Shown: positions 23,826 through 49,566 of the stretch, piece by piece
How positions within the stretch are numbered: the first letter of the stretch is position 1
How the letters are laid out: every line of letters begins with the position of its first letter
NCBI GenBank assembly: GCA_964496205.1
Contig: CAZBXV010000005.1
Span: 1 to 63,974 of the forward strand
Reading direction: 5' to 3'
Source of the DNA: an uncultured Acidimicrobiia bacterium
GTDB taxonomy: Bacteria; Actinomycetota; Acidimicrobiia; Spongiisociales; UBA4744
Length of the DNA: 63,974 nucleotides
Program-made: the position numbers and the translations under genes
The notes under the pieces: model-generated
The model's database searches: none
Told to the model about the DNA's origin: nothing
What the model saw: only the letters and a program-made list of their open reading frames with translations

Positions 23826-24770
23826 GTGAGCAGAGTCGGCCTGATCCTCGGGGGTGGCGGAGTCACCGGCGCCTCCTATCACCTTGCTGCGTTGCTTGCC
23901 TTGGAAATGGCAACCGGCTGGGACGTTGCATCCAGCGATGTTGTCGTTGGCACATCCGCTGGCGCATTTGCCGCAGCGATCGTCCGATCAGGTGGTGTCT
24001 CCCTCGACGCGATCGCCGAACCAGGAGATAGCGAAGAAGACGTCGAAGCGCGGATCCGATCGTGGGTGTACAAGAAGAAGCCTCTCAACGGCGTCGGCCG
24101 CTGGCTCCGCCATGGGATCATCCCGAGCTTGCGGCATCCTGGTGTCACTTCCCTGCTTGGGGCACCAGGTCGCTTCGACCCGTCCGGTATTGGTGACTGG
24201 GTTGCGGCACAGGCGCCCTCTGTAGCCGACTCCTGGCCAGACCGACCGACCGTCGTCGTCGCCTACAACCTCGAAGATCGCAGGAGAACGGCGTTCGGAA
24301 CGGTCGACGCTCCAGACGTTGCACTCCGCGACGCCGTGTCCGCATCGTCCGCCGTTCCTGTCGTGTTCGCTCCCCATCTGATCAAGAACAGGAGCTACGT
24401 CGATGGGGGTGTCTTCTCAGGCACCAACGCCGATCTCGTACTCGGGAGTCCGGAACCCCTGGATCTTCTGCTCATCCTGGCACCGATGGCCGCCGAAACC
24501 CAGCGGACCGGCGCACATTTCTATGAGTCGGTCTTCGACAGAGTGGGCCGATCTGCCCTCCATGACGAACTCGAAGTCGTGGCGACCGAGTGGCCCGACA
24601 TCGAGACACTCGTGCTGCGCCCCAGCCCGATGGTGCTCAGCGCCATGCGACCCAACCCGATGGACCCGAGCCGGGCGGTGCCAACGTTTGTACGGACACT
24701 GGCCTCGTTGCGCTCACGCCTCGCCCGACCGGAGGTGTGGTCCGTCCTCGAGCGTCACCTCGTTGCCTGA
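23826..24770 (+). CDS. patatin-like phospholipase
   Basis: Oxyanion GGGGVTG, nucleophile GTSAG (GxSxG), catalytic YVDGG (DGG). Confidence 0.85.
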   Translation: MSRVGLILGGGGVTGASYHLAALLALEMATGWDVASSDVVVGTSAGAFAAAIVRSGGVSLDAIAEPGDSEEDVEARIRSWVYKKKPLNGVGRWLRHGIIPSLRHPGVTSLLGAPGRFDPSGIGDWVAAQAPSVADSWPDRPTVVVAYNLEDRRRTAFGTVDAPDVALRDAVSASSAVPVVFAPHLIKNRSYVDGGVFSGTNADLVLGSPEPLDLLLILAPMAAETQRTGAHFYESVFDRVGRSALHDELEVVATEWPDIETLVLRPSPMVLSAMRPNPMDPSRAVPTFVRTLASLRSRLARPEVWSVLERHLVA

Positions 24771-25744
24771 TCGAGTTTGCTCAGCCACACGGACCGCTCG
24801 GATTCAGCCACAAACGAGGCGTTCAGTGATGTCCGCGCCATCGCCGCGAGATCCGCTTTCGAGAGATCCAGTGCGTTCGCAACGGCAAGGTAGTTGTCGG
24901 CGACATACCCACCGAAGTAGGCCGGGTCGTCCGAGTTGATCGTGACTGCGACACCGGCATCGTACAGACGCTTCAGATTGTGCATCGAGAGATCCTCAAA
25001 GACCCTCAGCTTCACATTGGAAAGCGGACACATGGTCAGTGGGATTCCCTCCGCAACCACACGCTCGAGGAGCGCGTGGTCCTCTTCGAGTCGCACACCA
25101 TGGTCGATTCGCTCTGCGTGGAGGAGATCGAGTGCCTGCTCGATGTACTCAGGCGGACCCTCCTCCCCGGCGTGGGCAACGACATGAAGACCCTCTGCGC
25201 GGGCACGGGCAAACACGTCTTGAAACAGCGATGGTGGGCGCCCTATCTCGGACGAATCGAGACCGAGACCGATGATCTTGGACCGATGACGGAGACCCGC
25301 CTCGAGGGTCTCCATCGCGGCCTCCGGGGTGAGATGCCGCAGGATCGACAGGATCAAGGCGGCCGACACCCCGATATCCGCCGCCTCCTGTGTGGCACGG
25401 TAGAGCCCGTTCACGACGACATCGAAAGGCACCCCACGATCCGTATGCGTCTGGGGATCGAAGAAGAGCTCCGCGCGCCGGACGCCGTCCGACGCGGCAC
25501 GAGTGAGGTAGGCCCACGCGAGTTCGTAGAAATCCTGTTCGGTCAACAGAACGGCAGCGCCCTTGTAGTAGATGTCCAGGAAGGACTGGAGGTTGCTGAA
25601 GGCATACGCGGCACGTATCTCCTCTACGGTGGGCACCGGCACATCGTTGCGATTGCCCAGCGTGACCATCAATTCGGGTTCGAGCGTGCCTTCGATGTGA
25701 ACGTGCAGTTCCGCTTTCGGCAGGCCACGAACGAACGCTTCCAT
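24755..25744 (-). CDS. adenosine-deaminase-fold enzyme, adenine deaminase (ADE) subtype likely
   Basis: 329 aa. PKAELHVHIEGTL, HAGE, SDDPAYFGGY. The 3' end overlaps the convergent patatin gene by 16 nt. Confidence 0.82.
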   Translation of the reverse strand: MEAFVRGLPKAELHVHIEGTLEPELMVTLGNRNDVPVPTVEEIRAAYAFSNLQSFLDIYYKGAAVLLTEQDFYELAWAYLTRAASDGVRRAELFFDPQTHTDRGVPFDVVVNGLYRATQEAADIGVSAALILSILRHLTPEAAMETLEAGLRHRSKIIGLGLDSSEIGRPPSLFQDVFARARAEGLHVVAHAGEEGPPEYIEQALDLLHAERIDHGVRLEEDHALLERVVAEGIPLTMCPLSNVKLRVFEDLSMHNLKRLYDAGVAVTINSDDPAYFGGYVADNYLAVANALDLSKADLAAMARTSLNASFVAESERSVWLSKLDQATR

Positions 25745-25807
25745 CCCGTACTCTCCTCGACGGTGTTTAGCGGTGAATCCTACTCGTGGTAGGTAGCATC
25801 AGCTGCA

Positions 25808-27148
25808 ATGAGTAGCCTTCTGATCACCCACGCCACGTTGCTCGTCACGATGGATGAACACCGCAGAGAGATTCCTGACGGCGGGCTCTTCGCACGAGAT
25901 GGTTGGATCGAGCACGTCGGGCCGACGGCGGATCTGCCACGCACCGCCGACAGCGTGCTGGATCTTCGAGACCACGTTGTCATACCTGGTCTGGTCAACA
26001 CCCACCATCACCTGTACCAGACGCTGACGAGGGCGTACGCCCAGGACTCGGAGCTCTTCGACTGGCTGACCACCCTCTACCCGGTCTGGGCGAGGATGAC
26101 GCCGACGGACGTGAACGTATCCGCCCGCCTCGGACTCACCGAGCTCGCAATGGCCGGGTGTACCACTTCGTCCGATCATCTCTATCTGTTTCCCAACGGA
26201 TCCCATCTCGATGACGAGATCGAGGCCGCCGCGCAGGTCGGTGTCCGGTTTCACGCAGCCCGGGGGTCGATGAGCCTCGGGGAGAGCGACGGTGGGCTCC
26301 CACCCGACTCTGTGGTGGAGAACGAGGAGGAGATCCTCCGCGACACGCAACGCGTAATCGAGGAGTTCCACGATCCCGAACCCGGTTCCATGCTGCGAGT
26401 CGTCGTCGCTCCCTGTTCTCCTTTTTCGGTCACGCCCCATCTGATGCGCGAGTGTGCCCGTCTCGCCCGGGAGTATGGGGTGACCCTGCACACGCACCTC
26501 GCCGAAACCGTCGACGAGGAGTCCTTCTGCATCGAACGCTTCGGCTTGCCGCCACTGGCCTACGCCGAGAGCGTCGAGTGGCTTGGCCCCGACGTATGGT
26601 TCGCACACGCGGTGCACATGGGCCAGGCGCAGATAGCCACCATGGCAGAGACCAAGACGGGCGCTGCACACTGCCCTGCATCCAACATGCGCCTCGGATC
26701 GGGCATCGCTCCCATCGCGGAGTATCTCGACTCGGGCGTTCGTGTCGGACTGGGCGTCGATGGGTCTGCTTCCAACGACGGTAACGACCTCCTCGGTGAA
26801 GCTCGGCTGGCTCTCCTCCTTGCCCGCGTCCGCCGCCGCAACATGCTCCCGGTTCGAACGGCCCTGGAGCTCGCCACGCTTGGCGGCGCGAAAGTGCTCG
26901 GCAGGACCGACATCGGTTCGCTCGCACCCGGAAAAGCAGCCGACTTCGCCGCCTTCGATCTGCGACAGATCGAGTATGCCGGCGCCCAGCACGATCCGGC
27001 CGCGGCGCTCCTCCTTTGTGCAACCACCCGCGCCTCCCACACGTACGTCCATGGAAGTCCGGTGGTGACCGAGGGCCGTCCGGTCAACGTGGAGCTGGAA
27101 CCTCTGATCGACGAGCACAACAAGGCGGCCCGCCAACTTCTCAACTAG
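25808..27148 (+). CDS. amidohydrolase, 8-oxoguanine deaminase-like
   Basis: 446 aa. PGLVNTHHHLYQTLTR, LYPVWARMTP, APCSPFSVTP, HTHLAET, GLGVDGSASND. These closely recall the Pseudomonas 8-oxoguanine deaminase as I remember it. Confidence 0.8.
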   Translation: MSSLLITHATLLVTMDEHRREIPDGGLFARDGWIEHVGPTADLPRTADSVLDLRDHVVIPGLVNTHHHLYQTLTRAYAQDSELFDWLTTLYPVWARMTPTDVNVSARLGLTELAMAGCTTSSDHLYLFPNGSHLDDEIEAAAQVGVRFHAARGSMSLGESDGGLPPDSVVENEEEILRDTQRVIEEFHDPEPGSMLRVVVAPCSPFSVTPHLMRECARLAREYGVTLHTHLAETVDEESFCIERFGLPPLAYAESVEWLGPDVWFAHAVHMGQAQIATMAETKTGAAHCPASNMRLGSGIAPIAEYLDSGVRVGLGVDGSASNDGNDLLGEARLALLLARVRRRNMLPVRTALELATLGGAKVLGRTDIGSLAPGKAADFAAFDLRQIEYAGAQHDPAAALLLCATTRASHTYVHGSPVVTEGRPVNVELEPLIDEHNKAARQLLN

Positions 27149-27166: not shown

Positions 27167-29377
27167 CTACCCGAAGTCCGCGATGTCTTCAGGGTGGATA
27201 GGCAGCCGTGTCACCGGCCTGCCAGTTGCGGCCCTCACAGCGGCGGCGATAGCGGGTCCCGAGGAGATCGACGGCAATTCCGAGAATCCCTTGGCTCCGA
27301 ACGGTCCCCATGAACTTGGCTGCTCGACGATGACCGCTTCGACCGGCGGCATGTCCTCGATCGTTGGAAGCAGGTAGTCCGTGAAGGTCGGGTTCTTGAT
27401 GACGCCGTCTGCCAGGATCACCTCTTCGAGGAGGGCCATCCCGAATCCTTGGGCGATCCCTCCCTCGATCTGCCCGATCACCTGCGCTGGGTTGAGCGCT
27501 TTGCCAACGTCTTGCGCGGTGTCGATCCGGACGACTCGTACGAGTCCCAGAACGGGGTCGACATCCACGACCGCTCGATGTGCGGCTACGCAGAAATCGA
27601 CGTGGACATCGCCCTGCCCGTTCTCGTCGGGTGGCGCGGTCGGGGCGTGGCGGTATCTCACCTCACCGATGATGGGTCCGTCGGCGCACACCTCTTCCCA
27701 CCCGGCAACCAGTTGGTCCCCCTTCCAAATCCCTTCGTCATCCATGGCGTCGCCGTCCGTGAGTTCCAGCGCTCTCTCCCTTGCCCGCCTCGCGGCCTGC
27801 TCGACGGCTCCCCCGGCCATCTGGGTTTGCCGGGACGCCGATGAGGAACCGGCCGAGCCGATCGTTGAGGTGTCATCCCATACGACCTCGACCCGTTCCA
27901 TGGTCAGGACGGTACGCGCTATCTGGACGAGAATCGTCACCATGCCTTGTCCGACTTCGGCTGCAGCCGTGTGTATCTCGGCGCCGTCCGAGGTCAGCTC
28001 GACACGTGCATCCGCGTAGTCGTCGAATGCTTCGGAGAACATCAGATTCTTGAGCGCAACGGCGTACCCGATCCCGCGAACGACCGCTTGGCGCGGTGTC
28101 GTCAGACCGGTACCTCCGGGAAGCCGGTCGGTGTGATCGTCGGGCAGCGGGATCGCCATGACCGATCGGATCACTTCCTCCACAGGCAGTGCGTCTTCGA
28201 TTCGCTGTCCGGTGGTTGCGAGCCGGTCGCCCGGAGCAATCGCATTCTTGAGCCTCAGCTCCAGTGGATCCATGCCGAGGGCTGTCGCCAAACGGTCCAT
28301 CTGCGCCTCGTGCGCAAAGCACACCTGGTTGGCCCCGAACCCGCGCATGGCCCCCGTCGGCGGGTTGTTGGTTCGGACGGCGAATCCGTCAACGAACACG
28401 TTCGGGCACCGGTATGGTCCGGCGGCGAAGTACACGGCGTTGGCAATCACTGCTTCCGATGTGTGTGCGTAGGCACCCCCATCCAGGATCAGCTTCGCAT
28501 CGACTCGAACGAGGTTCCCTTCGCTGTCGGCCTCGTGCCGGTACCACATGTGGGCGCTGTGTCGCTTGACGTGCCCGACGAAACTCTCTCCTCGCCCGTA
28601 CACCATCTTCACGGGTCGCTCGGTACGGAGTGCGAGCATGCAGAGGTGTGTATGGAGGCTCAGGTCCTCTCTGGAGCCGAACGCTCCTCCCAGGCCTGTC
28701 GGGTGAACACGGACCTGCTCGGGTTCGAGTGCGAGACACCGAACGAGTTGCTCTTGATCGACGTGAATCCACTGCGACGGCGGGTACAGGTCGACTCCCC
28801 CATCACCATCGGGAATCGCGAGCCCGGCCTCTGTTCCAAGGGGAGCCTGATCTATGTTCGGCGTCTCGTAGTAGCCCTCGACGACGACTGAGCCGTGGAC
28901 GTCCGGATCACCCCTACGGATCTTGAGATCACGAAACACCTCACCCGATTCCGCCGCCGTCTCCAGGTTCGTCGCCGCGGAAAGTTGCTCCAGTTCGACG
29001 ACGATAGCGTCGGCCGCGGCACGCGCCTGATCGCGTGTCTCGGCCGCGACGAGTGCGACCGCCTCACCCCAGTATCTGATCTCCCCGTCTGAGAGGACCG
29101 GCTGGTCCTGGACGATCTGGCCCTGGTACTTGAATCCGGGAACGTCGTCTTGAGTGAGCACGGCTGCCACTCCGGGCATGGCAAGGGCCGGAGCAATATC
29201 GATCGACACGATCCTGGCATGCGGCACGTACGCCCGGCGCGTCGCGCCCCACAGCATTCCTTTTGCATGGAGATCGCCGACGTAGGCGAACTCACCCGAG
29301 ACCTTCGCTGCTCCATCGGGCCTGCGGACCGATTCACCGACCACCCCGTTCACACGCCGTCGGGTCGAGATCGTCAT
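27167..29377 (-). CDS. xanthine dehydrogenase-family molybdopterin-binding large subunit (system 1)
   Basis: ATG at 29377 (MTISTRRRVNGVVGESV) overlaps the stop of the FeS subunit (ATGA). GGAFGSRED and GAMRGFGANQ motifs. C-terminal GFSELP retains the catalytic Glu. Confidence 0.9.
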   Translation of the reverse strand: MTISTRRRVNGVVGESVRRPDGAAKVSGEFAYVGDLHAKGMLWGATRRAYVPHARIVSIDIAPALAMPGVAAVLTQDDVPGFKYQGQIVQDQPVLSDGEIRYWGEAVALVAAETRDQARAAADAIVVELEQLSAATNLETAAESGEVFRDLKIRRGDPDVHGSVVVEGYYETPNIDQAPLGTEAGLAIPDGDGGVDLYPPSQWIHVDQEQLVRCLALEPEQVRVHPTGLGGAFGSREDLSLHTHLCMLALRTERPVKMVYGRGESFVGHVKRHSAHMWYRHEADSEGNLVRVDAKLILDGGAYAHTSEAVIANAVYFAAGPYRCPNVFVDGFAVRTNNPPTGAMRGFGANQVCFAHEAQMDRLATALGMDPLELRLKNAIAPGDRLATTGQRIEDALPVEEVIRSVMAIPLPDDHTDRLPGGTGLTTPRQAVVRGIGYAVALKNLMFSEAFDDYADARVELTSDGAEIHTAAAEVGQGMVTILVQIARTVLTMERVEVVWDDTSTIGSAGSSSASRQTQMAGGAVEQAARRARERALELTDGDAMDDEGIWKGDQLVAGWEEVCADGPIIGEVRYRHAPTAPPDENGQGDVHVDFCVAAHRAVVDVDPVLGLVRVVRIDTAQDVGKALNPAQVIGQIEGGIAQGFGMALLEEVILADGVIKNPTFTDYLLPTIEDMPPVEAVIVEQPSSWGPFGAKGFSELPSISSGPAIAAAVRAATGRPVTRLPIHPEDIADFG

Positions 29378-29817
29378 TGGACTCTCCTGATCGCCCGGAT
29401 GATCGACCCGTACCCGGTGCAGCGACAGAGATTCCCCGCAAGGGCAACACGGATCTCTTCCTCGGTCGGGTGCGGGTTCTGTTCGAGGAGGTGAGTTGCA
29501 GCAACGACGAAACCGGGAGTGCAGTACCCGCACTGTGCAGCGGCCTCATCGAGGAAGGCCTCCTGGAGTGGGGAGTTCCCGCCGTCCGGCGTCAGCCCTT
29601 CGACGGTGACAACGTCTGCGCCGTCGGCGTCAGCGGCCATGATCATGCAGGAGCAGACCGGCTGCCCATCCATCAGGACGGTGCAGGAACCGCACTCGCC
29701 CTGCTCGCAGGCATCCTTGCTCCCGAACAACCCGAGATCCTCTCTCAACACCCTGAGAAGGCTCTGACTGCCGTCCACGATGACGTCGGTGGCGGTGCCG
29801 TTCAGCCTGAATCTCAT
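29374..29817 (-). CDS. (2Fe-2S)-binding small subunit (system 1)
   Basis: 147 aa. CEQGECGSCTV, CGYCTPG, NLCRCTGY. Confidence 0.93.
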   Translation of the reverse strand: MRFRLNGTATDVIVDGSQSLLRVLREDLGLFGSKDACEQGECGSCTVLMDGQPVCSCMIMAADADGADVVTVEGLTPDGGNSPLQEAFLDEAAAQCGYCTPGFVVAATHLLEQNPHPTEEEIRVALAGNLCRCTGYGSIIRAIRRVQ

Positions 29818-30605
29818 AGGATGCGCTCCAGTGTTCGGCGGGCGATGACACCTGCTGCGTGCCTGCGATACCGCTCGGTCGAACGATGATCGGTGATTGG
29901 TGAGACCTCCTGCGACACGAGACGCTGGAACTCGTCCAACGCTGCCGGGCTCGGATATTTCTCGGCCGAGATCATCGCTTCGGCGCCACGGGCCCGAACC
30001 ACGGTGGGCGCCACCGACCCCAGCGCCACCGTCGTGTGCCCGTCATCGAATCTCACGACACATGCCGAAGCAATGGATATCACCATGGCGGAACGAACGC
30101 CGACCTTCGAGAATCCTTGGCGGCTCGGCATGTCTTCCGGCAGTTCGACTCCGACAACGAGCTCTCCCGGTTTCAGCGCCGTGCGTTTCACTCCGAGGAA
30201 GAAATCGTCCCACCGAAGCTTCCTCATACCATCTGCACCGCGTGTGACGATGGTCGCGTCGACAGCGGCAAGGAACGGCAACGCGTCACCAGCGGGGCTC
30301 GCTGTGCCGATGTTCCCTCCGATCGTCGCGGCGTTTCGGATCTGTGGTGAGCCAACCGTCCGCGCCGCTTCGGCCAGTCCCGCCCACGCAACATGCTCGA
30401 GTCTCGCGTGAGTGACCCCCGAGCCTATCCAGCGGCTGTTCAGCCCCTTCAATTCATCGATCCGCCGCAGCGCAACGACACTCGAGGGGTTGGCGAGACC
30501 GAAGTTGACCTGCACCATCAGGTCTGTGCCTCCCGCAAGACACACCGCGCCGCCCTGAAGGGCGGCCACGGCATCGTCGATCGTCGTTGGAAGCTCGATG
30601 TGCAC
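29814..30605 (-). CDS. FAD-binding (CoxM/XdhB-type) medium subunit (system 1)
   Basis: 263 aa. LAGGTDLMVQ and ATIGGNIG motifs. Confidence 0.9.
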   Translation of the reverse strand: MHIELPTTIDDAVAALQGGAVCLAGGTDLMVQVNFGLANPSSVVALRRIDELKGLNSRWIGSGVTHARLEHVAWAGLAEAARTVGSPQIRNAATIGGNIGTASPAGDALPFLAAVDATIVTRGADGMRKLRWDDFFLGVKRTALKPGELVVGVELPEDMPSRQGFSKVGVRSAMVISIASACVVRFDDGHTTVALGSVAPTVVRARGAEAMISAEKYPSPAALDEFQRLVSQEVSPITDHRSTERYRRHAAGVIARRTLERIL

Positions 30606-30719
30606 GTCGATCCAAATCTAGCGGTCCGCCACCCAAATGACAGCCGGGCCCCTGCGGATCACGACGCCCCTGGCGGCGGCTCGCAGACGCACCACTAGCG
30701 CCGCGCCCAGGATGCCCGA

Positions 30720-31400
30720 GTGTATGGTCCTGTTATGGACATCGAAACGGTCCTCGCGGCGAGTGAAGATGCGCTTCGGCAACCCGGCCGCGTCGATCTC
30801 GGTTCGCTCGGGTTTTGGAGGACCGTTGCTGTCTTGAAGCGAGATCCCCAACTCGCCCTCCGGTACGGCGAACGTGTCGAGCGCATCGACGACGAAGCGT
30901 TCCTGAGATGGGCTCGATTCGTGCTCCCCCTCTGGCTCGGTGTGACAGGGATGCTCGTTGCATCGATCGCTGGACTCTTCGTCGTGTCGCTGGGGTACTT
31001 CACGGCGGCGCCATGGAACGGCATCTGGATCCTCGTTGGGACAGGAATCCTGCTCGGGTCCACACATACCCTCGCACATGTCGCCGTCGGCGGTGCGGTT
31101 GGCATTCGCTTCACGCACTGGTTTATTGCCGATAGACCCCAGCCGGGTGTGAAGATCGGCTACGCCAGCTATCTGGCCACACCGCCCAGAGCCCGAGCCT
31201 GGATGCATGCTTCGGGTGCGATCATGACGAAGCTCGTCCCGCTGCTCAACCTCGGTGCGGCCTGGGGGGCGGGTGCCCCGGGATGGACCGTCTGGCTTCT
31301 GATCATTCTGGAACTCGTGATGATCGCCACCGACGTCCTCTTCTCGACGAAGAACTCGGATTGGAAGAAGTTCAAGCGAGAGATGAGATACGTTTCGTGA
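30720..31400 (+). CDS. hypothetical polytopic membrane protein
   Basis: At least 4 hydrophobic segments and codon third-position GC bias on this strand. The opposite-strand 289-aa ORF is Arg/Pro-rich junk. The start may be ATG at 30735. Confidence 0.5.
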   Translation: MYGPVMDIETVLAASEDALRQPGRVDLGSLGFWRTVAVLKRDPQLALRYGERVERIDDEAFLRWARFVLPLWLGVTGMLVASIAGLFVVSLGYFTAAPWNGIWILVGTGILLGSTHTLAHVAVGGAVGIRFTHWFIADRPQPGVKIGYASYLATPPRARAWMHASGAIMTKLVPLLNLGAAWGAGAPGWTVWLLIILELVMIATDVLFSTKNSDWKKFKREMRYVS

Positions 31401-31486
31401 CAGGTCCCCAAGCGTGTTCACCGGATCCCAGCATCGGTATTTCCACCGCTTCACCCTCTTACTGACGACTGGGAGCGCAGTTCCCA

Positions 31487-33741: not shown

Positions 33742-34670
33742 GCGAGTTCTTCAAGATCGCGGCGCTCGTCACCACGGCGAGCACGGGAATTCGGTACGCG
33801 ACCTCATACCTCTACGCGGCCATCGGTGAGACGTTCGGGCAGCGCAGCGGCGTACTCAACCTTGGTGTCGACGGCATCATGCTCCTCGGGGCGTTCGGCG
33901 CCTACTACACGACACGGCAGACCGGAAACCTCTGGTTGGCAATGCTCGTCGCCGCCGTGATCGGACTCATCATGGGGCTGGCAATGGCATTCGTGAGTGT
34001 GACCCTCCAGGCGGAACAGGGCATCAGCGGCATCGGCTTCTATCTCTTCGGGCTCGGGATGAGCGATCTGCTCTTCCAGAAGCTCGTCGGGACACCCCTC
34101 CCGATCCCCGGCTTCTCACAGATCCGCATCCCGTGGCTGAGCGAACTCCCGGTCGTGGGACAGTTGCTGTTTTCCCACAGCATCATCGTGTATGGCGCCT
34201 TTCTGCTGGTCCCGATCACCACATACGTACTGAACCGAACCACGATTGGTTTGAAGATCCGATCGGCGGGGGAGAACCCGGCTGCCGCCGACACGCTCGG
34301 CGTGTCGATCGCCAGAGTCCGCTACGGGACAGTCATGTTCGGCAGCATGCTCGCGGGTATCGGAGGTGCCGCCCTGACCACCGAGCTGCGGATCTTTCAG
34401 TCGAACCTGACGGCAGGCCAGGGTTTCATCGCGGTGGCGCTCGTCTACTTCGGTGCCTGGCGCCCCGTCGGCGTGATGTACGGGGCGCTTCTCTACGGCC
34501 TCGTGGCCTCGACCGTCCTCCAGTTGAAGACGCTCGGAGTGATTCCGCGGTCCGTCTCGGACCTCGCGACGATGCTCCCGGCGGTCATCACGATTCTCGC
34601 ACTTGTCGTCGCCGTTCAGCGGGAACGCCAACCGGCGGCGCTGACGAAACCGTACCAACGAGGGGGCTAG
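33738..34670 (+). CDS. ABC transporter permease (BMP/nucleoside-type, YufQ-like)
   Basis: 310 aa. ATGA overlap with the upstream permease. NLGVDGIM motif. Confidence 0.87.
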   Translation: MSEFFKIAALVTTASTGIRYATSYLYAAIGETFGQRSGVLNLGVDGIMLLGAFGAYYTTRQTGNLWLAMLVAAVIGLIMGLAMAFVSVTLQAEQGISGIGFYLFGLGMSDLLFQKLVGTPLPIPGFSQIRIPWLSELPVVGQLLFSHSIIVYGAFLLVPITTYVLNRTTIGLKIRSAGENPAAADTLGVSIARVRYGTVMFGSMLAGIGGAALTTELRIFQSNLTAGQGFIAVALVYFGAWRPVGVMYGALLYGLVASTVLQLKTLGVIPRSVSDLATMLPAVITILALVVAVQRERQPAALTKPYQRGG

Positions 34671-41724: not shown

Positions 41725-44271
41725 CTACTCGGTGGCCGCCAGCGGCAAGGACGTCCTCCATACTCCGTCTCGATCGTGCATGGCGGCGGCAACCGCCGGA
41801 GCGGTCGGCACCAGACCGATCTCACCCACTCCCTTCACTCCGTATGGAGCGTCGGGCTGTGGAACCTCGATGATGATGACCTCGACGTCCGGCATATCCT
41901 TTGCCCGCAGAATTCCAAGGCTGCGGAACGTCATGTTGGTGGGTCGCCCCGTCTCGTCGGTCGGGAAGTCTTCGGAGAGGGCATAGCCGAGGCCCATGTG
42001 AACGGCGCCTTCGATCTGACCTTCGACCAGCGTGGGATTCACCGCCTTGCCGACGTCGTGGGCGGCGACAACGCGTTCGATAACGCCGGTCTCCCTGTCC
42101 ATGATGACGACTTGGGCCGCGTAGCCGAACGCCGAATGGATGATGGGATGCTCCACCCCCGACTCCAGTGAACTGGTCCAATCCACGACATACTGGCCAT
42201 GGTGATCGACTCCAACAGTCCTCCCGGCGGCGATCGCATTCCGACACGCATCCTGAACCGCACCCGCTCCGAGCAACGTCCCCCTGGATCCGGTGGTCTG
42301 GCCGTCTCCCAGTTCTCTCGTGGTGTCCACGACAACCCGTATCTTCGATGTCGGCACCCCAAGTTCCTCCGACGCGACCTGCTGGGCAACCGTGTGGACA
42401 CCCTGACCCATCTCGGTCCAGCAATGTCGTACCTCGACCGAGCCATCCTCCTCGAATCGCACGACGGCCCTCGAGACCTCCTTGTAGCCGTTGCCCAGTC
42501 CGGTGTTCTTGAGGGCGAGGCCGAGCCCAACCGCCTTACCGGCTGCCTTGGCCTCCTCATAGACAGGCCGGACAGCGTCCAGACTCTCCTGAGCTCCGCG
42601 ACACCCATCGTCCATAATCTGGCCCGGTCCCCACTCAACACCCGGTTTGATCACGTTCCGGTTCCTGATCTCCCAGCCGGAGATTCCCACCTTCTCGGCA
42701 AGCCGGTCGAGGGTTCCTTCCATTCCAAACTGGGCCTGGTTTGCCCCGAATCCTCGGAAGGCACCGCATACCGGATTGTTGGTGCGCACGGCGATCGACT
42801 CGACGTCGACATTCGGAATCGCGTACGGACCGGTGGCATGACCAGCAGCACGTTCCAGCACCTTCATGCCGACCGAAGCGTAAGGGCCGGAATCCCCAAT
42901 CATCCTCGCCTTGACCGCGGTCAGGTGGCCCTCCTCGTCGCATCCGACCCAGTACTCGAGATGAATCGGATGGCGCTTGGCATGCATGAGCAGCGACTGC
43001 TCGCGAGTCAGGGTGCACTTGACCGGTCGCTGCAGGAGCCATGCCGCCATTGCGGTCTGACCCTGATTCGACATGTCTTCCTTGCCGCCGAACGCTCCCC
43101 CGTTTGAAACCAGTTCGACGGTGACCGAGTCCTTCGGGACCGCGAGCAGCGCGGCGATTTGATCCCGGTCGTCCCACACACCCTGTCCGCCTGAGTACAC
43201 ATGCAGCATCCCGTCGTCGAGGGGTACCGCGAGGGTCGACTCAGGCTCCAGGAAGGCGTGCTCGACGCGCTGTGTATCGAACACCTCATGCACTCTGTGG
43301 GCGCTTTCGGAGAGCGCCGTGTCTACGTCACCGCGCGCATACGCGGAGCGAGAGAGAACGTTGCCGTCGAGACCCCACACGGCACTCTCGTCAGACACAA
43401 GCGCTGCTTGGGCGTCAGTAAAAGGTGGTAGGGGTTCACACTCGACATCGATCAGCATTGCGGCCTCGCGGGCCGTCTCGCGGTCTTCGGCAACCACGAT
43501 CGCCAGCACGTCGCCCAGATAGGAGGTTCGGCCACCTTCGGGGATGAAGACGGGCCAGTCCTTGTCGATCAGCCCCACTCGGTTGGTTCCTGGAACATCG
43601 CTACCCGTGAATACGGCCACGACACCCTCGGTCGCCTCGGCTTTGCCGGTATCGATGCGGATCACATCGGCGCGGGCATGGTCTGCGAGGCGCAGCGCTG
43701 CATGAAGCATCCCGGGCACCCGCAGATCGTCCACGTACCCTCGTGTTCCAAGAGCCAGTTCGCGTGCCTCATACTTGACACCTCGAGATCCCACACCGCC
43801 GGGCGCATCCAAGGTGAGATCGTCACCGTGGGCGACAGCTTCGACGGCATCGAAGATCTTCACGTATCCAGTGCACCGGCACAGGTTTCCACCGAGGTGT
43901 CGGCGCAGGTCGTCACGGGTGAGGTCAGGCCCCTTCTTGTCGATGAGGGCCTTTGAACGCATGATGATCCCCGGTGTACAAAAACCACACTGTGTGGCAC
44001 CGTGCGCGGCGAACGCGTCTGCGAACCGATCACGTTCGATCTCCTCGAGACCCTCGAGCGTGACGACGGCAGTCCCCTCTGCCTTTTCGAGCGGCATCTG
44101 GCAGGCAACTCGCGCTTTTCCGTCGACGATGACCGTGCACGCTCCACACTGACCAGACGGAGAACATCCGTCTTTAGGAGAAGTGACATCGAGCTCTTCT
44201 CTCAGTGCCGCCAGGAGGTGAGGATGACTGTCGTCTACCTCGACCAGGGCACCGTTGAGCTCGAATTCCAT
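41725..44271 (-). CDS. xdhD: fused [2Fe-2S]x2 + molybdopterin-binding hydroxylase, XdhD-like (system 2)
   Basis: ATG at 44271 (MEFELNGALVEV) gives 848 aa. N-terminal CSPSGQCGACTV, CGFCTPG, NLCRCTGY. Then Moco-domain motifs GGAFGGKED, GAFRGFGANQ, GVGEIG. Confidence 0.88.
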   Translation of the reverse strand: MEFELNGALVEVDDSHPHLLAALREELDVTSPKDGCSPSGQCGACTVIVDGKARVACQMPLEKAEGTAVVTLEGLEEIERDRFADAFAAHGATQCGFCTPGIIMRSKALIDKKGPDLTRDDLRRHLGGNLCRCTGYVKIFDAVEAVAHGDDLTLDAPGGVGSRGVKYEARELALGTRGYVDDLRVPGMLHAALRLADHARADVIRIDTGKAEATEGVVAVFTGSDVPGTNRVGLIDKDWPVFIPEGGRTSYLGDVLAIVVAEDRETAREAAMLIDVECEPLPPFTDAQAALVSDESAVWGLDGNVLSRSAYARGDVDTALSESAHRVHEVFDTQRVEHAFLEPESTLAVPLDDGMLHVYSGGQGVWDDRDQIAALLAVPKDSVTVELVSNGGAFGGKEDMSNQGQTAMAAWLLQRPVKCTLTREQSLLMHAKRHPIHLEYWVGCDEEGHLTAVKARMIGDSGPYASVGMKVLERAAGHATGPYAIPNVDVESIAVRTNNPVCGAFRGFGANQAQFGMEGTLDRLAEKVGISGWEIRNRNVIKPGVEWGPGQIMDDGCRGAQESLDAVRPVYEEAKAAGKAVGLGLALKNTGLGNGYKEVSRAVVRFEEDGSVEVRHCWTEMGQGVHTVAQQVASEELGVPTSKIRVVVDTTRELGDGQTTGSRGTLLGAGAVQDACRNAIAAGRTVGVDHHGQYVVDWTSSLESGVEHPIIHSAFGYAAQVVIMDRETGVIERVVAAHDVGKAVNPTLVEGQIEGAVHMGLGYALSEDFPTDETGRPTNMTFRSLGILRAKDMPDVEVIIIEVPQPDAPYGVKGVGEIGLVPTAPAVAAAMHDRDGVWRTSLPLAATE

Positions 44272-44330: not shown

Positions 44331-44342
44331 TCACATATGTGA
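44331..44342. promoter_or_regulatory. perfect 12-bp palindrome TCACATATGTGA in a divergent control region; candidate operator
   Basis: Read directly from the sequence. AT-rich core in a GC-rich intergenic region, 60 nt upstream of the xdhD-like start and 95 nt upstream of the system-3 operon start. Confidence 0.35.
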
Positions 44343-44436: not shown

Positions 44437-45261
44437 ATGATCACCGACTACCTGCACCCGACATCTGCGGAAGTGGCATTCTCCACACTCACCTCGTTGG
44501 GCTCGAGGGCGCGCCTGGTCGGGGGAGGTACCGACCTGTCTCTCCATCCGCCGGCGGACGTCGATACGCTCATCGATCTCTCCACCGCCGGTCTCGGAGG
44601 GATCGATCGCGATGGTGGAGGGATCACCATCGGTGCAACCACCACACTCACCGAGATGCTCGAGTATCGACCTCTCGGAGACGTGTGGTCCGGTGTCGTT
44701 CACACCATGCTCGCGAGAGTGGCATCACCACTCCACCGAAACGCAGCATCGATCGGTGGGCACCTTGCGAGGGGACGTCTTTCCGACGTCATTCCCGTCA
44801 TGCTGGCACTTGACGCAGCCGTTCGGTTCTTCGATGGCTCACCCCAGCAGATGCCTCTCGTCGAGTTCTACGCGACGCGCCGAAACCGCAAGCCACTCGT
44901 AGTGACGAGCGTTCGCATTCCCTCGGACGGCGGGCGTGCTGCTTTCCGCAAGTTCGCCCGCACCACGTACGACCTCGCGATTCTCAACGTCGCGTGCGCG
45001 GCCCGATTCAAAGGTGACATCGTCACCTCGGCACGCATCGTGGTCGGCGAGCGCCCGAGTCTCGCGGTGCCCCTCACCCACGCCGCCGGGCTTCTCGTTG
45101 GTGAAATACTCACCAAAGAGTCGATCGCACACGCCGCGACGGTGGCGTCCGACACGATCGAAGTCCGAAGTGACCCGAGGGGAAGTGCCGAGTACCGGCG
45201 TCATCTCACAGAGGTCCTCGTGCGGCGGTGTCTCACAGAAATCCAGGAAGGACAGTCGTGA
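44437..45261 (+). CDS. FAD-binding medium subunit (system 3)
   Basis: 274 aa. LVGGGTDL and ASIGGHLA motifs. Confidence 0.9.
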   Translation: MITDYLHPTSAEVAFSTLTSLGSRARLVGGGTDLSLHPPADVDTLIDLSTAGLGGIDRDGGGITIGATTTLTEMLEYRPLGDVWSGVVHTMLARVASPLHRNAASIGGHLARGRLSDVIPVMLALDAAVRFFDGSPQQMPLVEFYATRRNRKPLVVTSVRIPSDGGRAAFRKFARTTYDLAILNVACAARFKGDIVTSARIVVGERPSLAVPLTHAAGLLVGEILTKESIAHAATVASDTIEVRSDPRGSAEYRRHLTEVLVRRCLTEIQEGQS

Positions 45262-45725
45262 ATCTCACCGTCAACGGCGCAGCGTTCGAGATAGACGTAT
45301 CCCCGTCAGAGAGCCTCCTCGATCTTCTCCGTTCGCTGGGTTTCAAAGGCGTCAAGAACGGCTGCGACAACGGAGACTGCGGTGCCTGTGCGGTCCTGAT
45401 CGATGGCAGGGCCATCACCTCGTGTGACTACCCGGCCGCAGCAGCGAACGGGAAGGACATCATCACCGTGGAGGGGCTCGCCAAAGACGGTGAACTCCAC
45501 CCGATCCAGGCCGCGTTCCTCGACACCGGCGGCGTCCAGTGTGGGTTCTGCACCCCAGGCATGATGCTGGCTGCACTCGATCTTCTCACGCGGGTCCCCG
45601 ATCCATCGGACGATCAGATCCGGGAGGCCCTCAGAGGCAATCTCTGTCGTTGTACCGGCTACGTGAAGCCGGTCGAAGCAGTCAGAACCGCCGCCGCCCG
45701 GATGAGGAAGGTCACTCATGGCTGA
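45258..45725 (+). CDS. (2Fe-2S)-binding small subunit (system 3)
   Basis: GTG at 45258 overlaps the upstream stop (GTGA). CDNGDCGACAV, CGFCTPG, NLCRCTGY. Confidence 0.9.
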   Translation: MNLTVNGAAFEIDVSPSESLLDLLRSLGFKGVKNGCDNGDCGACAVLIDGRAITSCDYPAAAANGKDIITVEGLAKDGELHPIQAAFLDTGGVQCGFCTPGMMLAALDLLTRVPDPSDDQIREALRGNLCRCTGYVKPVEAVRTAAARMRKVTHG

Positions 45726-48021
45726 TCTCTTTCACGTCGTCGGTCACAGCGAACGGCGAGTGGACGGTCATGCACTCGTGACCGGCAAACCGGTCTTCGC
45801 AGGCGACTTGGAGCTGCCCGGCATGTTGCACATTTCTGTGCTCGGATCTCCCCACGCCCATGCACGAATCACGTCGATCGTGACCGAACGTGCCGAAGCA
45901 CTCGAAGGCGTGGCCCTGGTCCTCACACACCTCAACACACCGGACGTCCGATACACAACGGCCGGCCAAGGCCACCCTGAGCCGTCACCGTACGACAATC
46001 GGATGTTCGATCAGAAGGTTCGTTTCGTCGGCGACCGTGTCGCCGCCGTGGCCGCCGTATCCAAGGAGATCGCCGACAAGGCACTCGAACTCATTGACGT
46101 CGAATACGACCCGCTGCCTCCCGTCTTCTCGATCGACGATGCGCTCGCCGAAGGGGCACCCGTCATCCACGATGAACAAGACGCATCCGGCATCTGGGAT
46201 GCCGCACACAACATCGCGGGGGTGGTCGAAGCAAATGTGGGCGACGTCGACGCCGCACTCGAGTCCGCGTTCGCCTCGGTCGAGTTCACCGGGGAAGCCC
46301 AGTACGCCCAGCACGTGCCCCTCGAAACGCACGTGTCCGTCGCGTACATGGACGACAATGACCGGCTCGTCCTCTACACCAGCACTCAAGTGCCTTTTCA
46401 CGTGCGCCGCATCATGGCGAAAGTGCTCGGGATACCGGCCCGGCGAATCCACGTCATCAAGCCGCGAATCGGCGGAGGATTCGGCGTCAAGCAGGAGGTC
46501 CTGATCGAAGATCTGGTCGGCCTCGTGACATTGCGTACCGGCCTCCCGAGCCGTCTCGAGTACACACGCGCCGAAGAGTTCTATGCATCCCGGACACGCC
46601 ACCCCATGCGCGTGAAGGTTCGCCTCGGCACTGATGCCGACGGAACGATCCAGGCGGTGGACATGGATGCGCTCGAAAACACCGGGGCATACGGGGCACA
46701 CAACCTCACGGTGGTCTCAAACGCCGGCTCGAAGACGCTCCCGATGTACAACAAGGCTCCGAACGTTCGTTTCACCGCCAAGGGCATCTATACGAATCTG
46801 CCTGTCGGCGGGGCCTATCGGGGGTATGGCGGCACCCAGGGAGTGTTCGCGTTGGAAGTCGCGATGGACATCCTTGCCGAGAAGCTCGGCGTTGACGCGC
46901 TCGAGTTGCGACGTCGCAATCACATCCGAACCGGTGAGACCAGCCCGATCTTCGAAGAACTGGGGGAAGGGCGCAAGGGCGTCCCACAGACGATCGGAAG
47001 TTGCGGCCTGGATCAGTGCATCGACATTGGCGCAACGAAAATCGGGTGGGCCGAGAAACGTGGGCGCCGACTCAAGAACGGCCCATGGGTGCATGGCGTC
47101 GGCATGTCCATTCACATGCAGGGCTCCGGCATCCCCGCGATAGACATGGCTGCGGCCACCATCAAGATGAACGATGACGGTTCGTTCAACCTCCTCGTCG
47201 GAGCGACAGACATCGGCACGGGTTCCGATACGGTCCTTGGGCAGATCGCGGCCGAGGCGCTGGGCGTCGCCCTCGACGAGATCATCGTCCTCTCCTCCGA
47301 CACAGACGTCACTCCGTTCGATGTGGGCGCTTACGCGTCGTCGACGACCTACGTGTCGGGCTCCGCAGTGCTGAGAGCGGCCGAAGACGTCAAGGTTCAG
47401 ATCCTGGGAGTCGCTGCGGCAATGCTTCGGACCGATGCCGGCGACCTCCATCTCGATGCCGGCAAGGTCGTTGCGCAAGATGGTCGGAGTGTCACTCTTG
47501 CCGATGTCGCCCTGCGATCGCTCTACGGCGTCGATCAGTTCCAGATCGGTGCAACGGCGTCCTTCGTCGGCGATGTCTCTCCCCCGCCGTTCCTGGCGTC
47601 GTTCGCCGAGGTCGCCATCGACACGGAGACGGGCCAGTTGAAGATCGTCAATTACGTCGGCGTGTTCGATTGCGGGACCGCCGTGAATCCTCGGCTCGCG
47701 GAAGGCCAGGCTGAGGGTGCGCTGGCCAATGGCATCGGCTACGCGCTCATGGAAGAGATGCGGTTCGACAAGTACGGGCGGATGCGCAACCCCGATTTGG
47801 GTCGGTACAAGATTCCTGCGGCAACCGATATGCCTCCTCTCGATGTCGTTCTGGTCGACACGTACGAGGAGACGGGCCCGATGGGTGCGAAATCGATCGC
47901 AGAAATCGGCATCAATGCCCCCATCCCAACTCTGGCGAATGCCATCTATGACGCAGTCGGTGTTCGCTTGGCAGATCCTCCATTCACGTCGGAGAAAATC
48001 TGGCGCGCCATGCAGGGCTGA
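45718..48021 (+). CDS. xanthine dehydrogenase-family molybdopterin-binding large subunit, XdhA-like (system 3)
   Basis: 767 aa. YTSTQVPFHVRR, KPRIGGGFGVKQE, GAYRGYGGTQ, SIAEIG. Confidence 0.92.
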   Translation: MADLFHVVGHSERRVDGHALVTGKPVFAGDLELPGMLHISVLGSPHAHARITSIVTERAEALEGVALVLTHLNTPDVRYTTAGQGHPEPSPYDNRMFDQKVRFVGDRVAAVAAVSKEIADKALELIDVEYDPLPPVFSIDDALAEGAPVIHDEQDASGIWDAAHNIAGVVEANVGDVDAALESAFASVEFTGEAQYAQHVPLETHVSVAYMDDNDRLVLYTSTQVPFHVRRIMAKVLGIPARRIHVIKPRIGGGFGVKQEVLIEDLVGLVTLRTGLPSRLEYTRAEEFYASRTRHPMRVKVRLGTDADGTIQAVDMDALENTGAYGAHNLTVVSNAGSKTLPMYNKAPNVRFTAKGIYTNLPVGGAYRGYGGTQGVFALEVAMDILAEKLGVDALELRRRNHIRTGETSPIFEELGEGRKGVPQTIGSCGLDQCIDIGATKIGWAEKRGRRLKNGPWVHGVGMSIHMQGSGIPAIDMAAATIKMNDDGSFNLLVGATDIGTGSDTVLGQIAAEALGVALDEIIVLSSDTDVTPFDVGAYASSTTYVSGSAVLRAAEDVKVQILGVAAAMLRTDAGDLHLDAGKVVAQDGRSVTLADVALRSLYGVDQFQIGATASFVGDVSPPPFLASFAEVAIDTETGQLKIVNYVGVFDCGTAVNPRLAEGQAEGALANGIGYALMEEMRFDKYGRMRNPDLGRYKIPAATDMPPLDVVLVDTYEETGPMGAKSIAEIGINAPIPTLANAIYDAVGVRLADPPFTSEKIWRAMQG

Positions 48022-48024
48022 AGC

Positions 48025-49566
48025 TCACTCCCCCATCAGCTTGCGCACCATTTCCACCTTCATCTCCCACAGGTTGTCGGTGAGGGACACGTGGTACACA
48101 TGCGGATTGATGAGCCGCCGGACACCCGGGTCCAGCCGCTCCAGATCAGCGATTCTCCGCCGCCGCAACTCATCGATGGGAGGTGACGGTTCGACACGCC
48201 TGCCCTCTTTCATCACCGCAACAGGAAGCGTCTCGATCTCTGACACCGCCCCCTCGGGCAGACGGCGCATCGACGTGGGGATCACCGGATGGTGCAGCGT
48301 GATCGGCTTCCCAGGCTCAATCGACTCGTCCGCCCTGCCGAGAACGTCTGCAGTTGCTGTGCCTCTGGCGTCGTAGACGCGCCACACCTGTTTTCTGCCT
48401 GGATTCGGGATCTTCGCCTGAGACTCCGACACTTTGATCGCAGGATTCCACCCGGATGCCTCCTCGATCGCGACCAGCTTGTAGACACCATCGAGAGACG
48501 CATCACCCTGCGAAGTGATCAGACGGGTTCCTACCCCGTACACCAAGCGACCGATCAGATGGTCGGGATCCACCCGATAGCTGGGCGCCTCGGACCTGAT
48601 CTGGGACACGATCTGCCAAATGGCCAGCTCATCGAGGTTTGACGAGAGCACGATCGATGTTTCGGCGAAGCCCGCGTCGTCGAGCATTCGAGCCGCCTGA
48701 ATAGCGAGATAGGCCAGGTCTCCGGAATCGAGTCGGATGCCGACCGGCTCGTGCCCCGACCGACGCAGCTCTTCGAACACGGTGATTGCGTTGGGAACGC
48801 CGCTCTCGATCGTGTCGATGGTGTCGACGAGCAGCAGGCAGTCATCGGGAAACACGTCGGCGTAGGCTCGAAACGCGTCGAGTTCCGTCTCCCCCTTTGC
48901 AAGGAAGAGCTGGATCAACGAGTGGGCATGCGTCCCTTTCGAAGGGACACCAACACCGAGTGACGTCCCAACATTCGAGCTGAAGTGGGCACCCCCCACG
49001 AGCGCTGCCCGAGTCCCTGCGTTGGTGCCTCGCTCGGGACCTCTGCGCATGCCGAACTCCAGGATCGGCCGGCCGAGCGCTGCTTCATGAACCCGGGAAG
49101 CCTTCGTGGCGATCAGCGTCGGATAGTTGAGATGGTTGAGCAGGGACGTCTCGAGGATCTGCGCGATGAGGAGCGGTCCGACGACCACGGCCAACGGGAC
49201 ATTCGGGTGCACGATCCGGCCTTCTGGAATCGCCGTCATGTCGATCGCTGAGAAGTCGCCGTTTTGACGGAGCCACTGGAGGAAGTCCGGGGCGAACATC
49301 GGGTCCCCCGAAGCGCTGCGCAGCGTGCCGAGTTGCTCGATGTCTGTGTCGGTCACGTGCGTCGTCTCCATCCAATCCAGCAGCCAGTCGAGGCCGGCTC
49401 CGACCGCGTAGCCGGCTTGATGTTTGCCATAGTCGGGGTAGGAGCGGAAGTAGTAGTCGAACTCGGCGGGTTGCTCGTGCACCCCGAGGCGGAAGTAGAC
49501 CTGGGCCATCGTGAGTTGGTACAGGTCGGTGAACAAGAACCCTTCAGCAAGCGATGCCTCGTACAT
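48025..49566 (-). CDS. pncB: nicotinate phosphoribosyltransferase
   Basis: 513 aa. [16 protein letters not shown]-terminus; GTHAHS; RLDSGDL. Confidence 0.9.

Follow-up and report, generated by a model that had tools for sequence, protein, structure and literature searches.

The 25-kb gene cluster at positions 24755-49566 of the window, a stretch of 63,974 nucleotides from an uncultured bacterium of the Acidimicrobiia, probably encodes the upper part of a route for purine catabolism whose final stage is the reductive breakdown of urate via 2,8-dioxopurine. Most likely, the cluster is the known reductive pathway with several of its standard parts missing or replaced. The window is the entire contig C5 of its assembly (2.19 Mb in 107 contigs, 92% complete and 0.8% contaminated), and the genome-wide absences given below are bounded by the 8% gap in that assembly. 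The host lineage consists of uncultured soil and sediment actinobacteria (Acidimicrobiia) with haem-copper oxidases. Genes of the window were assigned by Pfam and NCBIfam profile scans, with start sites refined from the translations. The families to which the proteins belong, the order of the genes and how far it is conserved, and the lack of matches across the genome are established; we infer all substrates and all reaction directions from sequence and gene context, and our confidence in the roles of individual enzymes is lower than in the pathway as a whole.

Two preprints of 2025 introduced the 2,8-dioxopurine pathway in gut anaerobes (10.1101/2025.05.19.654654, 10.1101/2025.04.24.650524). 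In E. coli, XdhD-YgfM converts urate to 2,8-dioxopurine (isoxanthine) with NADH, YgfK and SsnA convert 2,8-dioxopurine to ureidomethylhydantoin, and HyuA, YgeW (with YqeA), YgeY, and YgeX complete the breakdown to pyruvate (10.1101/2025.05.19.654654). In C. sporogenes, urate is converted to 2,8-dioxopurine by DOPDH, a fused, FAD-less, and selenium-dependent enzyme that is reported to carry an A1078T/S change and to work only anaerobically; all strains with the pathway carry SelD, YqeB, and YqeC (10.1101/2025.04.24.650524).

In the route that we propose, nucleosides would enter via a BMP-type ATP-binding cassette (ABC) importer, and an adenosine-family deaminase and an 8-oxoguanine/guanine deaminase would funnel adenine- and guanine-type compounds to hypoxanthine, xanthine, and urate. 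The first of three molybdenum hydroxylases (H1, PucCDE-like) would oxidize hypoxanthine and xanthine to urate. An enzyme of the xanthine dehydrogenase (XDH) family working in reverse would reduce urate at C-6 to 2,8-dioxopurine, with H3 and H2 as the candidates; the FAD subunit of H3 would link this reduction to NAD(P)H, and H2, encoded directly upstream of ssnA-ygfK, would be a FAD-less alternative. YgfK would then reduce the ring and a short SsnA would hydrolyze it. From a separate locus, an aspartate carbamoyltransferase (ATCase)-like enzyme and an ornithine carbamoyltransferase (OTC)/YgeW-like enzyme would remove the two ureido groups by phosphorolysis, and a carbamate kinase would use the resulting carbamoyl phosphate to make ATP. 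Two fold-type-II pyridoxal phosphate (PLP) enzymes would replace YgeX in converting diaminopropionate to pyruvate and ammonia, and a GntR/HutC regulator with an adjacent glutamate dehydrogenase would complete the lower module. The genes of the cluster are as follows (M, S, and L denote FAD, 2Fe-2S, and molybdenum cofactor [Moco] subunits).

24755-25744, minus strand: adenosine-deaminase-family deaminase (PF00962, E=2e-88; NF006850, 500 bits against a cut-off of 419)
25808-27148, plus strand: 8-oxoguanine deaminase family (NF006055, 671 bits against a cut-off of 532)
29814-30605 (M), 29374-29817 (S), and 27167-29377 (L), minus strand: H1, three-subunit molybdenum hydroxylase
30720-31400, plus strand: 226-aa polytopic membrane protein, with several hydrophobic helices in its translation
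31487-32482, minus strand: Zn-dependent alcohol-dehydrogenase family (TIGR02822, 388 bits against a cut-off of 283.5)
32614-37322, plus strand: BMP/PnrA-type ABC importer (PF02653 twice, PF02608, and PF00005 in two matched stretches), comprising permeases 32614-33741 and 33738-34670, lipoprotein binding protein 34694-35740, and double ATPase 35754-37322
37346-40669, minus strand: ygfK, Fe-S flavoprotein (TIGR03315, 929 bits against a cut-off of 835)
40683-41705, minus strand: ssnA-like amidohydrolase of 340 aa, 33% identical to E. coli SsnA
41725-44271, minus strand: H2, fused 2Fe-2S/Moco (S-L) hydroxylase (TIGR03311, 858 bits against a cut-off of 830)
44437-45261 (M), 45228-45725 (S), and 45718-48021 (L), plus strand: H3, split hydroxylase
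48025-49566, minus strand: pncB, nicotinate phosphoribosyltransferase (NF006695, 564 bits against a cut-off of 469)

The elements named in the original prediction, which was made from the sequence alone (three hydroxylases, ygfK, ssnA, deaminases, a BMP importer, and pncB), are each confirmed by Pfam or NCBIfam. Its gene list needs correction in the label of the first deaminase and omitted the Zn-dependent alcohol dehydrogenase and the membrane protein. Its view of the cluster as a coherent purine unit likewise holds, but the 25 kb cover only the upper half of the pathway.

H2, ssnA, and ygfK form one tightly packed operon, in which H2 ends 19 nt upstream of ssnA and the gap between ssnA and ygfK is 13 nt. 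YgfK shares 36% identity with its E. coli counterpart along the full length (1-991) and exceeds the TIGR03315 equivalog cut-off; it is predicted to be the 2,8-dioxopurine reductase. The SsnA-like protein, of 340 aa versus 442 aa in E. coli, begins nine residues ahead of the HxH motif and retains the metal and catalytic motifs HxH, HxHxAE, HN-RSN, and GTDG. The same start is found in all 13 related loci, at 73 to 90% identity, ruling out a frameshift or pseudogene. The short SsnA is a conserved trimmed form, and its predicted reaction is the ring opening of reduced 2,8-dioxopurine. The earlier proposal that ygfK and ssnA provide a substitute route is likely, in keeping with the function shown for these proteins in E. 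coli and C. sporogenes (10.1101/2025.05.19.654654, 10.1101/2025.04.24.650524).

Searches with E. coli XdhA and XdhD (tblastn) identify only three XDH-family large subunits in the genome, those of H1, H2, and H3. To compare their active sites, we aligned the large subunits and numbered positions after xanthine oxidoreductase (XOR). The contexts KGFSELP, KGVGEIG, and KSIAEIG align to XOR Glu1261, bearing out the statement that all three proteins keep the catalytic glutamate. In profile scans, CO dehydrogenase or aldehyde oxidoreductase (AOR) models score best for none of the three; a placement of two of them with CO or aldehyde dehydrogenases would have counted against the original prediction. 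Solved structures do not discriminate among the three, as all are approximately 30% identical to 4-HBCR, AOR, NDH, or XOR.

H1 is a probable PucD-like xanthine dehydrogenase. Its large subunit scores best on TIGR03196 (pucD), at 744 bits, under the cut-off of 783.65, with the second-best model at 438 bits; scores on the pucE and pucC models are likewise under their cut-offs. The protein retains XOR Glu802, Phe914, Phe1009, and Glu1261 and has a serine at position 1078. Its three-subunit layout is that of B. subtilis PucABCDE. In contrast to the B. subtilis system, H1 lacks a PucA (XdhC-type) partner, an unlinked MocA-like gene on another contig (C7) is the sole representative of the PucB/MocA type, and there is no uricase (PucLM) pathway downstream.

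The large subunit of H3 shares 42% identity with E. coli XdhD (535 bits) and 35% with XdhA. In a maximum likelihood tree of 23 large subunits, with few reference anchors and long E. coli branches, H3 clusters with XdhD and with fused XdhD-like proteins from two related loci (L014 and L019) with support of 98/97, XdhA lies outside this clade, and H1 and H2 form sister clades apart from it. The tree supports the XdhD affinity of H3. Further, a GEG motif in H3 aligns to Glu606 of XdhD, the residue singled out by Li et al. (10.1101/2025.05.19.654654), and XdhA has a gap there. On TIGR03313, the model of the E. coli XdhD type, H3 L scores 682 bits against a cut-off of 1102; only the Moco part of the model is matched. 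H3 also differs from XdhD in being split into S and L genes. Taken with its own FAD subunit, these features make H3 a second candidate urate reductase, encoded divergently from the H2-ssnA-ygfK operon.

H2 is the first candidate urate/2,8-dioxopurine oxidoreductase. Its match to TIGR03311 spans model positions 2-844 of 848, and it has no FAD subunit of its own. XOR Glu802, Arg880, Phe914, and Glu1261 are retained, and Ala1078 is replaced by threonine. The threonine fits the A1078T/S change of DOPDH, as that change is given in the published description. A FAD-less fused FeS-Moco hydroxylase encoded with ssnA and ygfK is also what C. sporogenes has, where the pathway comprises DOPDH (xdhAC), DOPOR (= YgfK), SsnA, and HyuA together with YgeW, YgeY, and YgeX, although its downstream enzymes differ from those described below.

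These assignments leave room for an alternative in which only H3 reduces urate, and H1 and H2 are both oxidative and divide the labor, for instance with H2 forming xanthine from hypoxanthine and H1 forming urate from xanthine, or with these roles swapped. Such a split between a purine hydroxylase and a xanthine dehydrogenase exists in purinolytic clostridia. The alternative would explain why H2 passes TIGR03311, which NCBI names "selenium-dependent xanthine dehydrogenase," and retains the full XOR substrate-binding set, and it agrees with the sister relationship of the H1 and H2 clades and with the grouping of H3 with XdhD, the sole reference with shown urate-reductase activity. However, it is H2, not H3, that is coupled to ssnA-ygfK and that consistently accompanies the short SsnA in relatives. 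Clusters of related bacteria that have H2 and the short SsnA and no H3-type gene require that H2 or H1 make the substrate of the SsnA pathway, and the Thr1078 of H2 fits DOPDH, though H1 has a serine at that position. We judge the alternative unlikely, and comparative context points to both H2 and H3 in urate reduction. The alternative is close to the sequential oxidation suggested in the original prediction, a suggestion that needs revision: at least one of the "hydroxylases" most probably works in reverse, removing the 6-hydroxyl of urate instead of hydroxylating a further ring position.

Loci gathered via YgfK from public genomes put our genome among uncultured Acidimicrobiia. Four of them (L002 to L005), all from metagenome-assembled genomes, encode YgfK proteins 79 to 80% identical to ours; in remoter relatives, labeled Acidimicrobiia, Acidobacteriota, and one Kiloniellales, the identity is 56 to 65%. 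The H2-ssnA-ygfK triad recurs in at least nine related loci. H2 orthologs of at least 69% identity are present in 19 of 25 related genomes searched, and the protein is very common in metagenomes, with an ortholog at 72% identity recorded on 105 contigs. In three loci (L030 to L032, metagenome contigs in ENA of a very abundant environmental Actinomycetota type), the gene after the H2 ortholog encodes a short SsnA of 70% identity, and a luciferase-family reductase replacing YgfK comes next. The H2-ssnA pair is thus kept with either YgfK or a luciferase-like reductase. The full order of this type (L030 to L032, 4139-22196) is an H1-like XDH (54% identical to H1), an AllC-like M20 amidohydrolase, a CN-hydrolase, the H2 ortholog, the short SsnA, the luciferase-family reductase, an 8-oxoguanine-deaminase-like gene, a BMP ABC importer, and a PALP enzyme, and no H3-type gene was found in the three loci of this type inspected. 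Li et al. already noted SsnA in Actinomycetota and Chloroflexota and a variant with an F420-type reductase (10.1101/2025.05.19.654654). L030 resembles the F420/luciferase-type variant of Chloroflexota, with a Bac_luciferase reductase where the window has YgfK, and its lower genes are hydrolytic, as opposed to the phosphorolytic module linked to the window's pathway. Conversely, in L013, L014, and L019, ssnA-ygfK is accompanied by yqeB/yqeC and a gene for a fused XdhD-like protein, to which L014 and L019 add ygfM, and no H2 was found in the locus sequence examined. Loci with only H2 and loci with only an XdhD-like enzyme imply that either type can accompany SsnA alone; the genus of our genome has both.

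The E. coli ygeW-ygfT cluster carries xdhD-ygfM, ygfK, ssnA, hyuA, ygeW, ygeY, ygeX, and yqeA, along with yqeB, yqeC, and mocA. Our cluster shares with it YgfK, an SsnA homologue, a Moco subunit of the XdhD clade that has the Glu606 motif and a FAD partner of its own, a YqeA-like carbamate kinase, a nearby second XDH of the XdhABC/PucCDE-like type, and a guanine-type deaminase. It differs in its extra TIGR03311-type fused hydroxylase (H2), which occupies the spot expected for xdhD, and in importing through an ABC system rather than a nucleobase:H+ symporter. In addition, its lower-pathway genes lie at a separate locus, and its host carries genes for aerobic respiration.

This lower module, split over contigs C41 and C32, contains a replacement set that is conserved in relatives: two carbamoyltransferases (CT1 and CT2), a carbamate kinase (CK), and two PLP enzymes (PLP409 and PLP489).

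C41:30-926, minus strand: CT1, running off the start of C41
C41:1011-1742, plus strand: GntR/HutC regulator
C41:1777-2754, plus strand: CT2
C41:2818-4164: NADP-glutamate dehydrogenase
C32:22902-23852, minus strand: CK, beginning 70 nt from the end of C32
C32:~21664-22905, minus strand: PLP409
C32:20183-21643, minus strand: PLP489

The ends of C41 and C32 most likely abut, given the truncated CT1 at the one, the CK gene only 70 nt away from the other, and a gene order that then equals that of L009. In relatives, both carbamoyltransferases and the kinase are linked to ssnA-ygfK: the module stands beside the cluster in L002, L003, and L004 and after ygfK in L009, and L016 has a single co-directional row CT1-CT2-CK-PLP409-PLP489-ssnA-ygfK. 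The position of the GntR/HutC gene is conserved in L009 and L016. The lack of a regulator in the original prediction holds for the cluster itself, with no transcription factor found between 24755 and 49566, but the pathway's lower module has one.

CT1 is ATCase-like. CT2 resembles OTC, N-acetylornithine carbamoyltransferase, putrescine carbamoyltransferase, and YgeW about equally and is under every cut-off. The place of E. coli YgeW is taken by two ordinary-looking carbamoyltransferases. CK shares 49% identity with YqeA; the CK ortholog of L004 reaches 376 bits on NF009007 (cut-off 266). Albizziin is the lower homologue of citrulline, and an OTC-like enzyme could therefore phosphorolyze its 3-ureido group. 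Similarly, 2,3-diureidopropionate resembles carbamoyl-aspartate, so an ATCase-like enzyme could take its 2-ureido group. CT1 and CT2 together would then yield two carbamoyl phosphates per urate. PLP409 (ThrC-like) and PLP489 (CysK-like) are both fold-type-II PLP enzymes; they share the fold type of YgeX and would turn diaminopropionate into pyruvate.

The opening of the hydantoin ring, a step between these two halves, was sought across the genome. Queries with E. coli HyuA (IPR011778) and AllB match only a pyrB-linked dihydroorotase-like gene on C23 (tblastn), and a census of Amidohydro_1 proteins in the genome gave no further hydantoinase candidate. An amidohydrolase on C11 was rejected as a hydantoinase because it is Xaa-Pro-dipeptidase-like. 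The only hydantoinase-type enzyme found in the genome is an ATP-dependent hydantoinase/oxoprolinase-type HyuA/B pair (C26:2158-5825, caprolactamase alpha/beta-like) unlinked to the purine genes. The only candidates for the step are this pair and, through some activity not expected of them, SsnA or the deaminase-like amidohydrolase.

No other route for urate disposal was detected. Uricase, OHCU decarboxylase, and HIU hydrolase have no match in the genome, with control genomes positive, and AllA, AllC, AllD, and AllE have none by tblastn. The classical oxidative pathway, reported missing from the cluster, is therefore not found genome-wide either, in searches covering uricase, HIU hydrolase, OHCU decarboxylase, and AllA to AllE; the urate oxidases HpxO and PuuD and the allantoicase family PF03561 were not searched separately. 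Inside the cluster itself, there are no genes for XdhC, MocA, uricase, or allantoin breakdown.

These absences also bear on another explanation, that H2-ssnA-ygfK acts on a different N-heterocycle (a pyrimidine, pterin, nicotinate-type compound, or other oxopurine) or on selenate, and that the cluster combines separate nucleobase functions. ygfK was once annotated with a role in selenate metabolism. The short SsnA, CT2, and both PLP enzymes score under the cut-offs of the canonical families, the canonical downstream and selenium-cofactor genes were not found, pncB is adjacent, and the genome looks aerobic, all of which would suit this explanation. Nevertheless, we consider it improbable: YgfK is above its equivalog cut-off, the neighbors are purine deaminases and a PucD-like XDH, and the genome has no other route of urate disposal. 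Moreover, carbamoyltransferases, carbamate kinase, and PLP lyase-type enzymes match the needs of a route through diureidopropionate and diaminopropionate, and pncB is convergent and adjacent in the closest relatives only.

Maturation of the hydroxylases does not follow the published systems. The original prediction noted no XdhC/MocA-type gene in the cluster, and this extends to XdhC genome-wide, with a MocA/YgfJ-like cytidylyltransferase encoded on C7 (145 bits, under the cut-off of 186). In searches of 26 genomes, PF02625 (XdhC/CoxI, which covers YqeB) has no match in our genome, in the four others of the same genus, or in G005, G008, and G011, and is present in all 18 remaining relatives. 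These eight PF02625-negative genomes each carry an H2 ortholog and three to five XDH-family large-subunit genes. The absence of the XdhC family is robust, being a genus-wide pattern. A MOSC-type sulfurase as a replacement for XdhC was not found either, as no MOSC domain was detected in the genome. The TIGR03311 family is known from genomes with YqeB and YqeC, markers of the labile-selenium cofactor. Our genome shares SelD with C. sporogenes-type pathway strains; the gene (C21:16504-17433, locus L022) has one in-frame TGA, suggesting that SelD is probably selenocysteine-containing and that the host probably uses selenocysteine, which would imply selenocysteine-decoding machinery. The genes found thus include none of XdhC, YqeB, YqeC, or MOSC for installing the sulfido or selenido ligand.

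Could the cluster then be a decaying or partly non-functional remnant, in which the hydroxylases and the module no longer work? The SsnA is approximately 100 residues shorter than that of E. coli, XdhC, YqeB, YqeC, and MOSC were not found, and the lower module is separated from the upper. Against this, no reading frame is broken, 13 loci keep the 340-aa SsnA together with its catalytic motifs, H2 orthologs are widespread in related genomes and very common in metagenomes, and each XdhC-negative relative retains three to five XDH-family large-subunit genes. We regard decay as highly improbable.

Several observations weigh against assignment of the cluster to reductive urate breakdown. The short SsnA reaches 253 bits on TIGR03314 (cut-off 444) and 240 bits on NF005540 (cut-off 455) and lacks the N-terminal ~55 residues and some loops (~100 residues) of E. 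coli SsnA. CT2 reaches 172 to 175 bits on YgeW models with cut-offs of 453 to 500. E. coli HyuA, YgeY, and YgeX have no convincing match in the genome by tblastn, YgeY and YgeX queries giving weak matches only (24% identity), and the sigma-54 regulator YgeV of E. coli was also not found; because of the missing matches, the conversion of ureidomethylhydantoin to diureidopropionate has no assigned enzyme. The published enzymes need SelD together with YqeB and YqeC, whereas this genome has SelD only: neither YqeB nor YqeC was found in it with E. coli and Acidimicrobiia queries or with PF02625. The large-subunit tree, with few references and without a CO dehydrogenase or AOR outgroup, is not a full classification. 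Finally, the pathway is known as anaerobic, whereas the host has three haem-copper oxidase subunit I genes; with an NDH-2 fragment also encoded in the window, it apparently respires oxygen.

With these points considered, reductive urate breakdown remains the probable function, and we tentatively extend it in three directions, as a joint reading that is possible rather than probable. First, H2 and H3 might be two urate reductases with different electron donors, H3 linked to NAD(P)H and H2 perhaps fed through YgfK. Second, O2-respiring, free-living Acidimicrobiia might dispose of urate without uricase, using molybdenum enzymes that need neither YqeB/YqeC nor an XdhC-type chaperone, a proposal that we advance with some doubt. 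Third, and just as speculatively, both ureido groups might be phosphorolyzed, giving two ATP per urate versus one in E. coli, with the hydantoin opened by an unrecognized enzyme. Full-text literature searches gave no account of an aerobe that combines two carbamoyltransferases with two PLP enzymes, a short SsnA, and a pair of candidate urate reductases and that lacks YqeB, YqeC, and XdhC.

The two deaminases at the left end were described originally as adenine-deaminase- and 8-oxoguanine-deaminase-type enzymes. The second label is correct, with the gene on the plus strand; the first enzyme belongs to the adenosine-deaminase family (NF006850), would convert adenosine to inosine, and may accept adenine too. 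The 8-oxoguanine deaminase gene is the sole tblastn match of E. coli GuaD and the sole guanine-deaminase-like gene in the genome; its product is predicted to give urate from 8-oxoguanine, and the gene is kept beside the module in L014, L019, and L030. The substrates of the BMP ABC importer are presumably nucleosides. The 226-aa membrane protein has no Pfam or NCBIfam match; a 289-aa reading frame on the opposite strand (30618-31487, minus strand) was rejected as an operon gene because of its implausible composition and lack of a family, and the membrane protein was preferred. In L004, the Zn-dependent alcohol dehydrogenase gene comes straight after the carbamoyltransferase/kinase/PLP operon.

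At the right end, pncB, which had been taken to close the cluster, is indeed present. The gene converges on H3 and does not obviously belong to the pathway; among the loci that extend to that side, the nearest (L002, L004, L005, and L006) retain the adjacency, which was not seen in more distant loci. pncB is probably a neighbor outside the pathway. Nicotinate had been suggested as a hydroxylase substrate; nothing supports this. The pncB gene has a convergent orientation, and the affinity of H3 is to XdhD.

The left edge of the cluster is marked by thrS (20689-22809) and a patatin-like phospholipase gene (23826-24770, plus strand), which is convergent with the deaminase gene, overlaps its 3' end by 16 nt, and is unrelated to purine chemistry. 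Beyond the right edge lie genes for an OmpR-type response regulator and a histidine kinase (50696-52557) and a PadR gene (54887-55270); queries with the regulator and kinase gave no match in the visible regions upstream of pncB in L002, L004, and L006. In the divergent region between H2 and H3, the perfect palindrome TCACATATGTGA (44331-44342) gives no sign of being an operator, as it has no second copy in the genome and the equivalent region of five relatives (L002, L004, L005, L006, and L017) lacks it. A second element, GCTAGCATC, approximately 15 nt upstream of the H3 M start, is conserved in L002, L004, and L005, less exact in L017, and not found in L006.

Directly upstream of ssnA-ygfK, three distant loci, among them L014 (5516-8914) and L019 (2112-8914, a tandem pair), encode proteins of approximately 1130 aa with zinc-ribbon, adenylate-cyclase, and AAA_16 regions, which may be regulators of the ssnA-ygfK module in those loci; a 41%-identical homologue is encoded in our genome at C49:9642-13016. 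These 1132-aa reading frames had been considered as ATP-dependent hydantoinases, and this was rejected in favor of adenylate-cyclase/AAA regulators. In two distant Acidimicrobiia, a gene for formate-tetrahydrofolate ligase lies near H2-ssnA-ygfK (L010:3991-5928 and L012:12841-14778), with the ortholog in our genome at C11:52532-54460; this proximity may be a mere shared neighborhood.

The cluster raises the questions of how molybdenum hydroxylases mature without XdhC or YqeB, which enzyme opens the hydantoin, whether the ATP yield is doubled, and why TIGR03311-type and XdhD-type enzymes co-occur. Selenium-independent, oxygen-tolerant versions of these enzymes would interest builders of urate-degrading probiotics. 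The pathway has been presented as anaerobic, selenium-dependent, and host-associated, and its core (hydroxylase, SsnA, and YgfK) is found here in a uricase-negative lineage with haem-copper oxidases. Close homologues of H2 are abundant in soil and marine metagenomes, and purine nitrogen recycling outside guts may often be reductive. If the joint reading is true, much environmental purine would be consumed reductively, making the route a major sink that extends beyond gut anaerobes.

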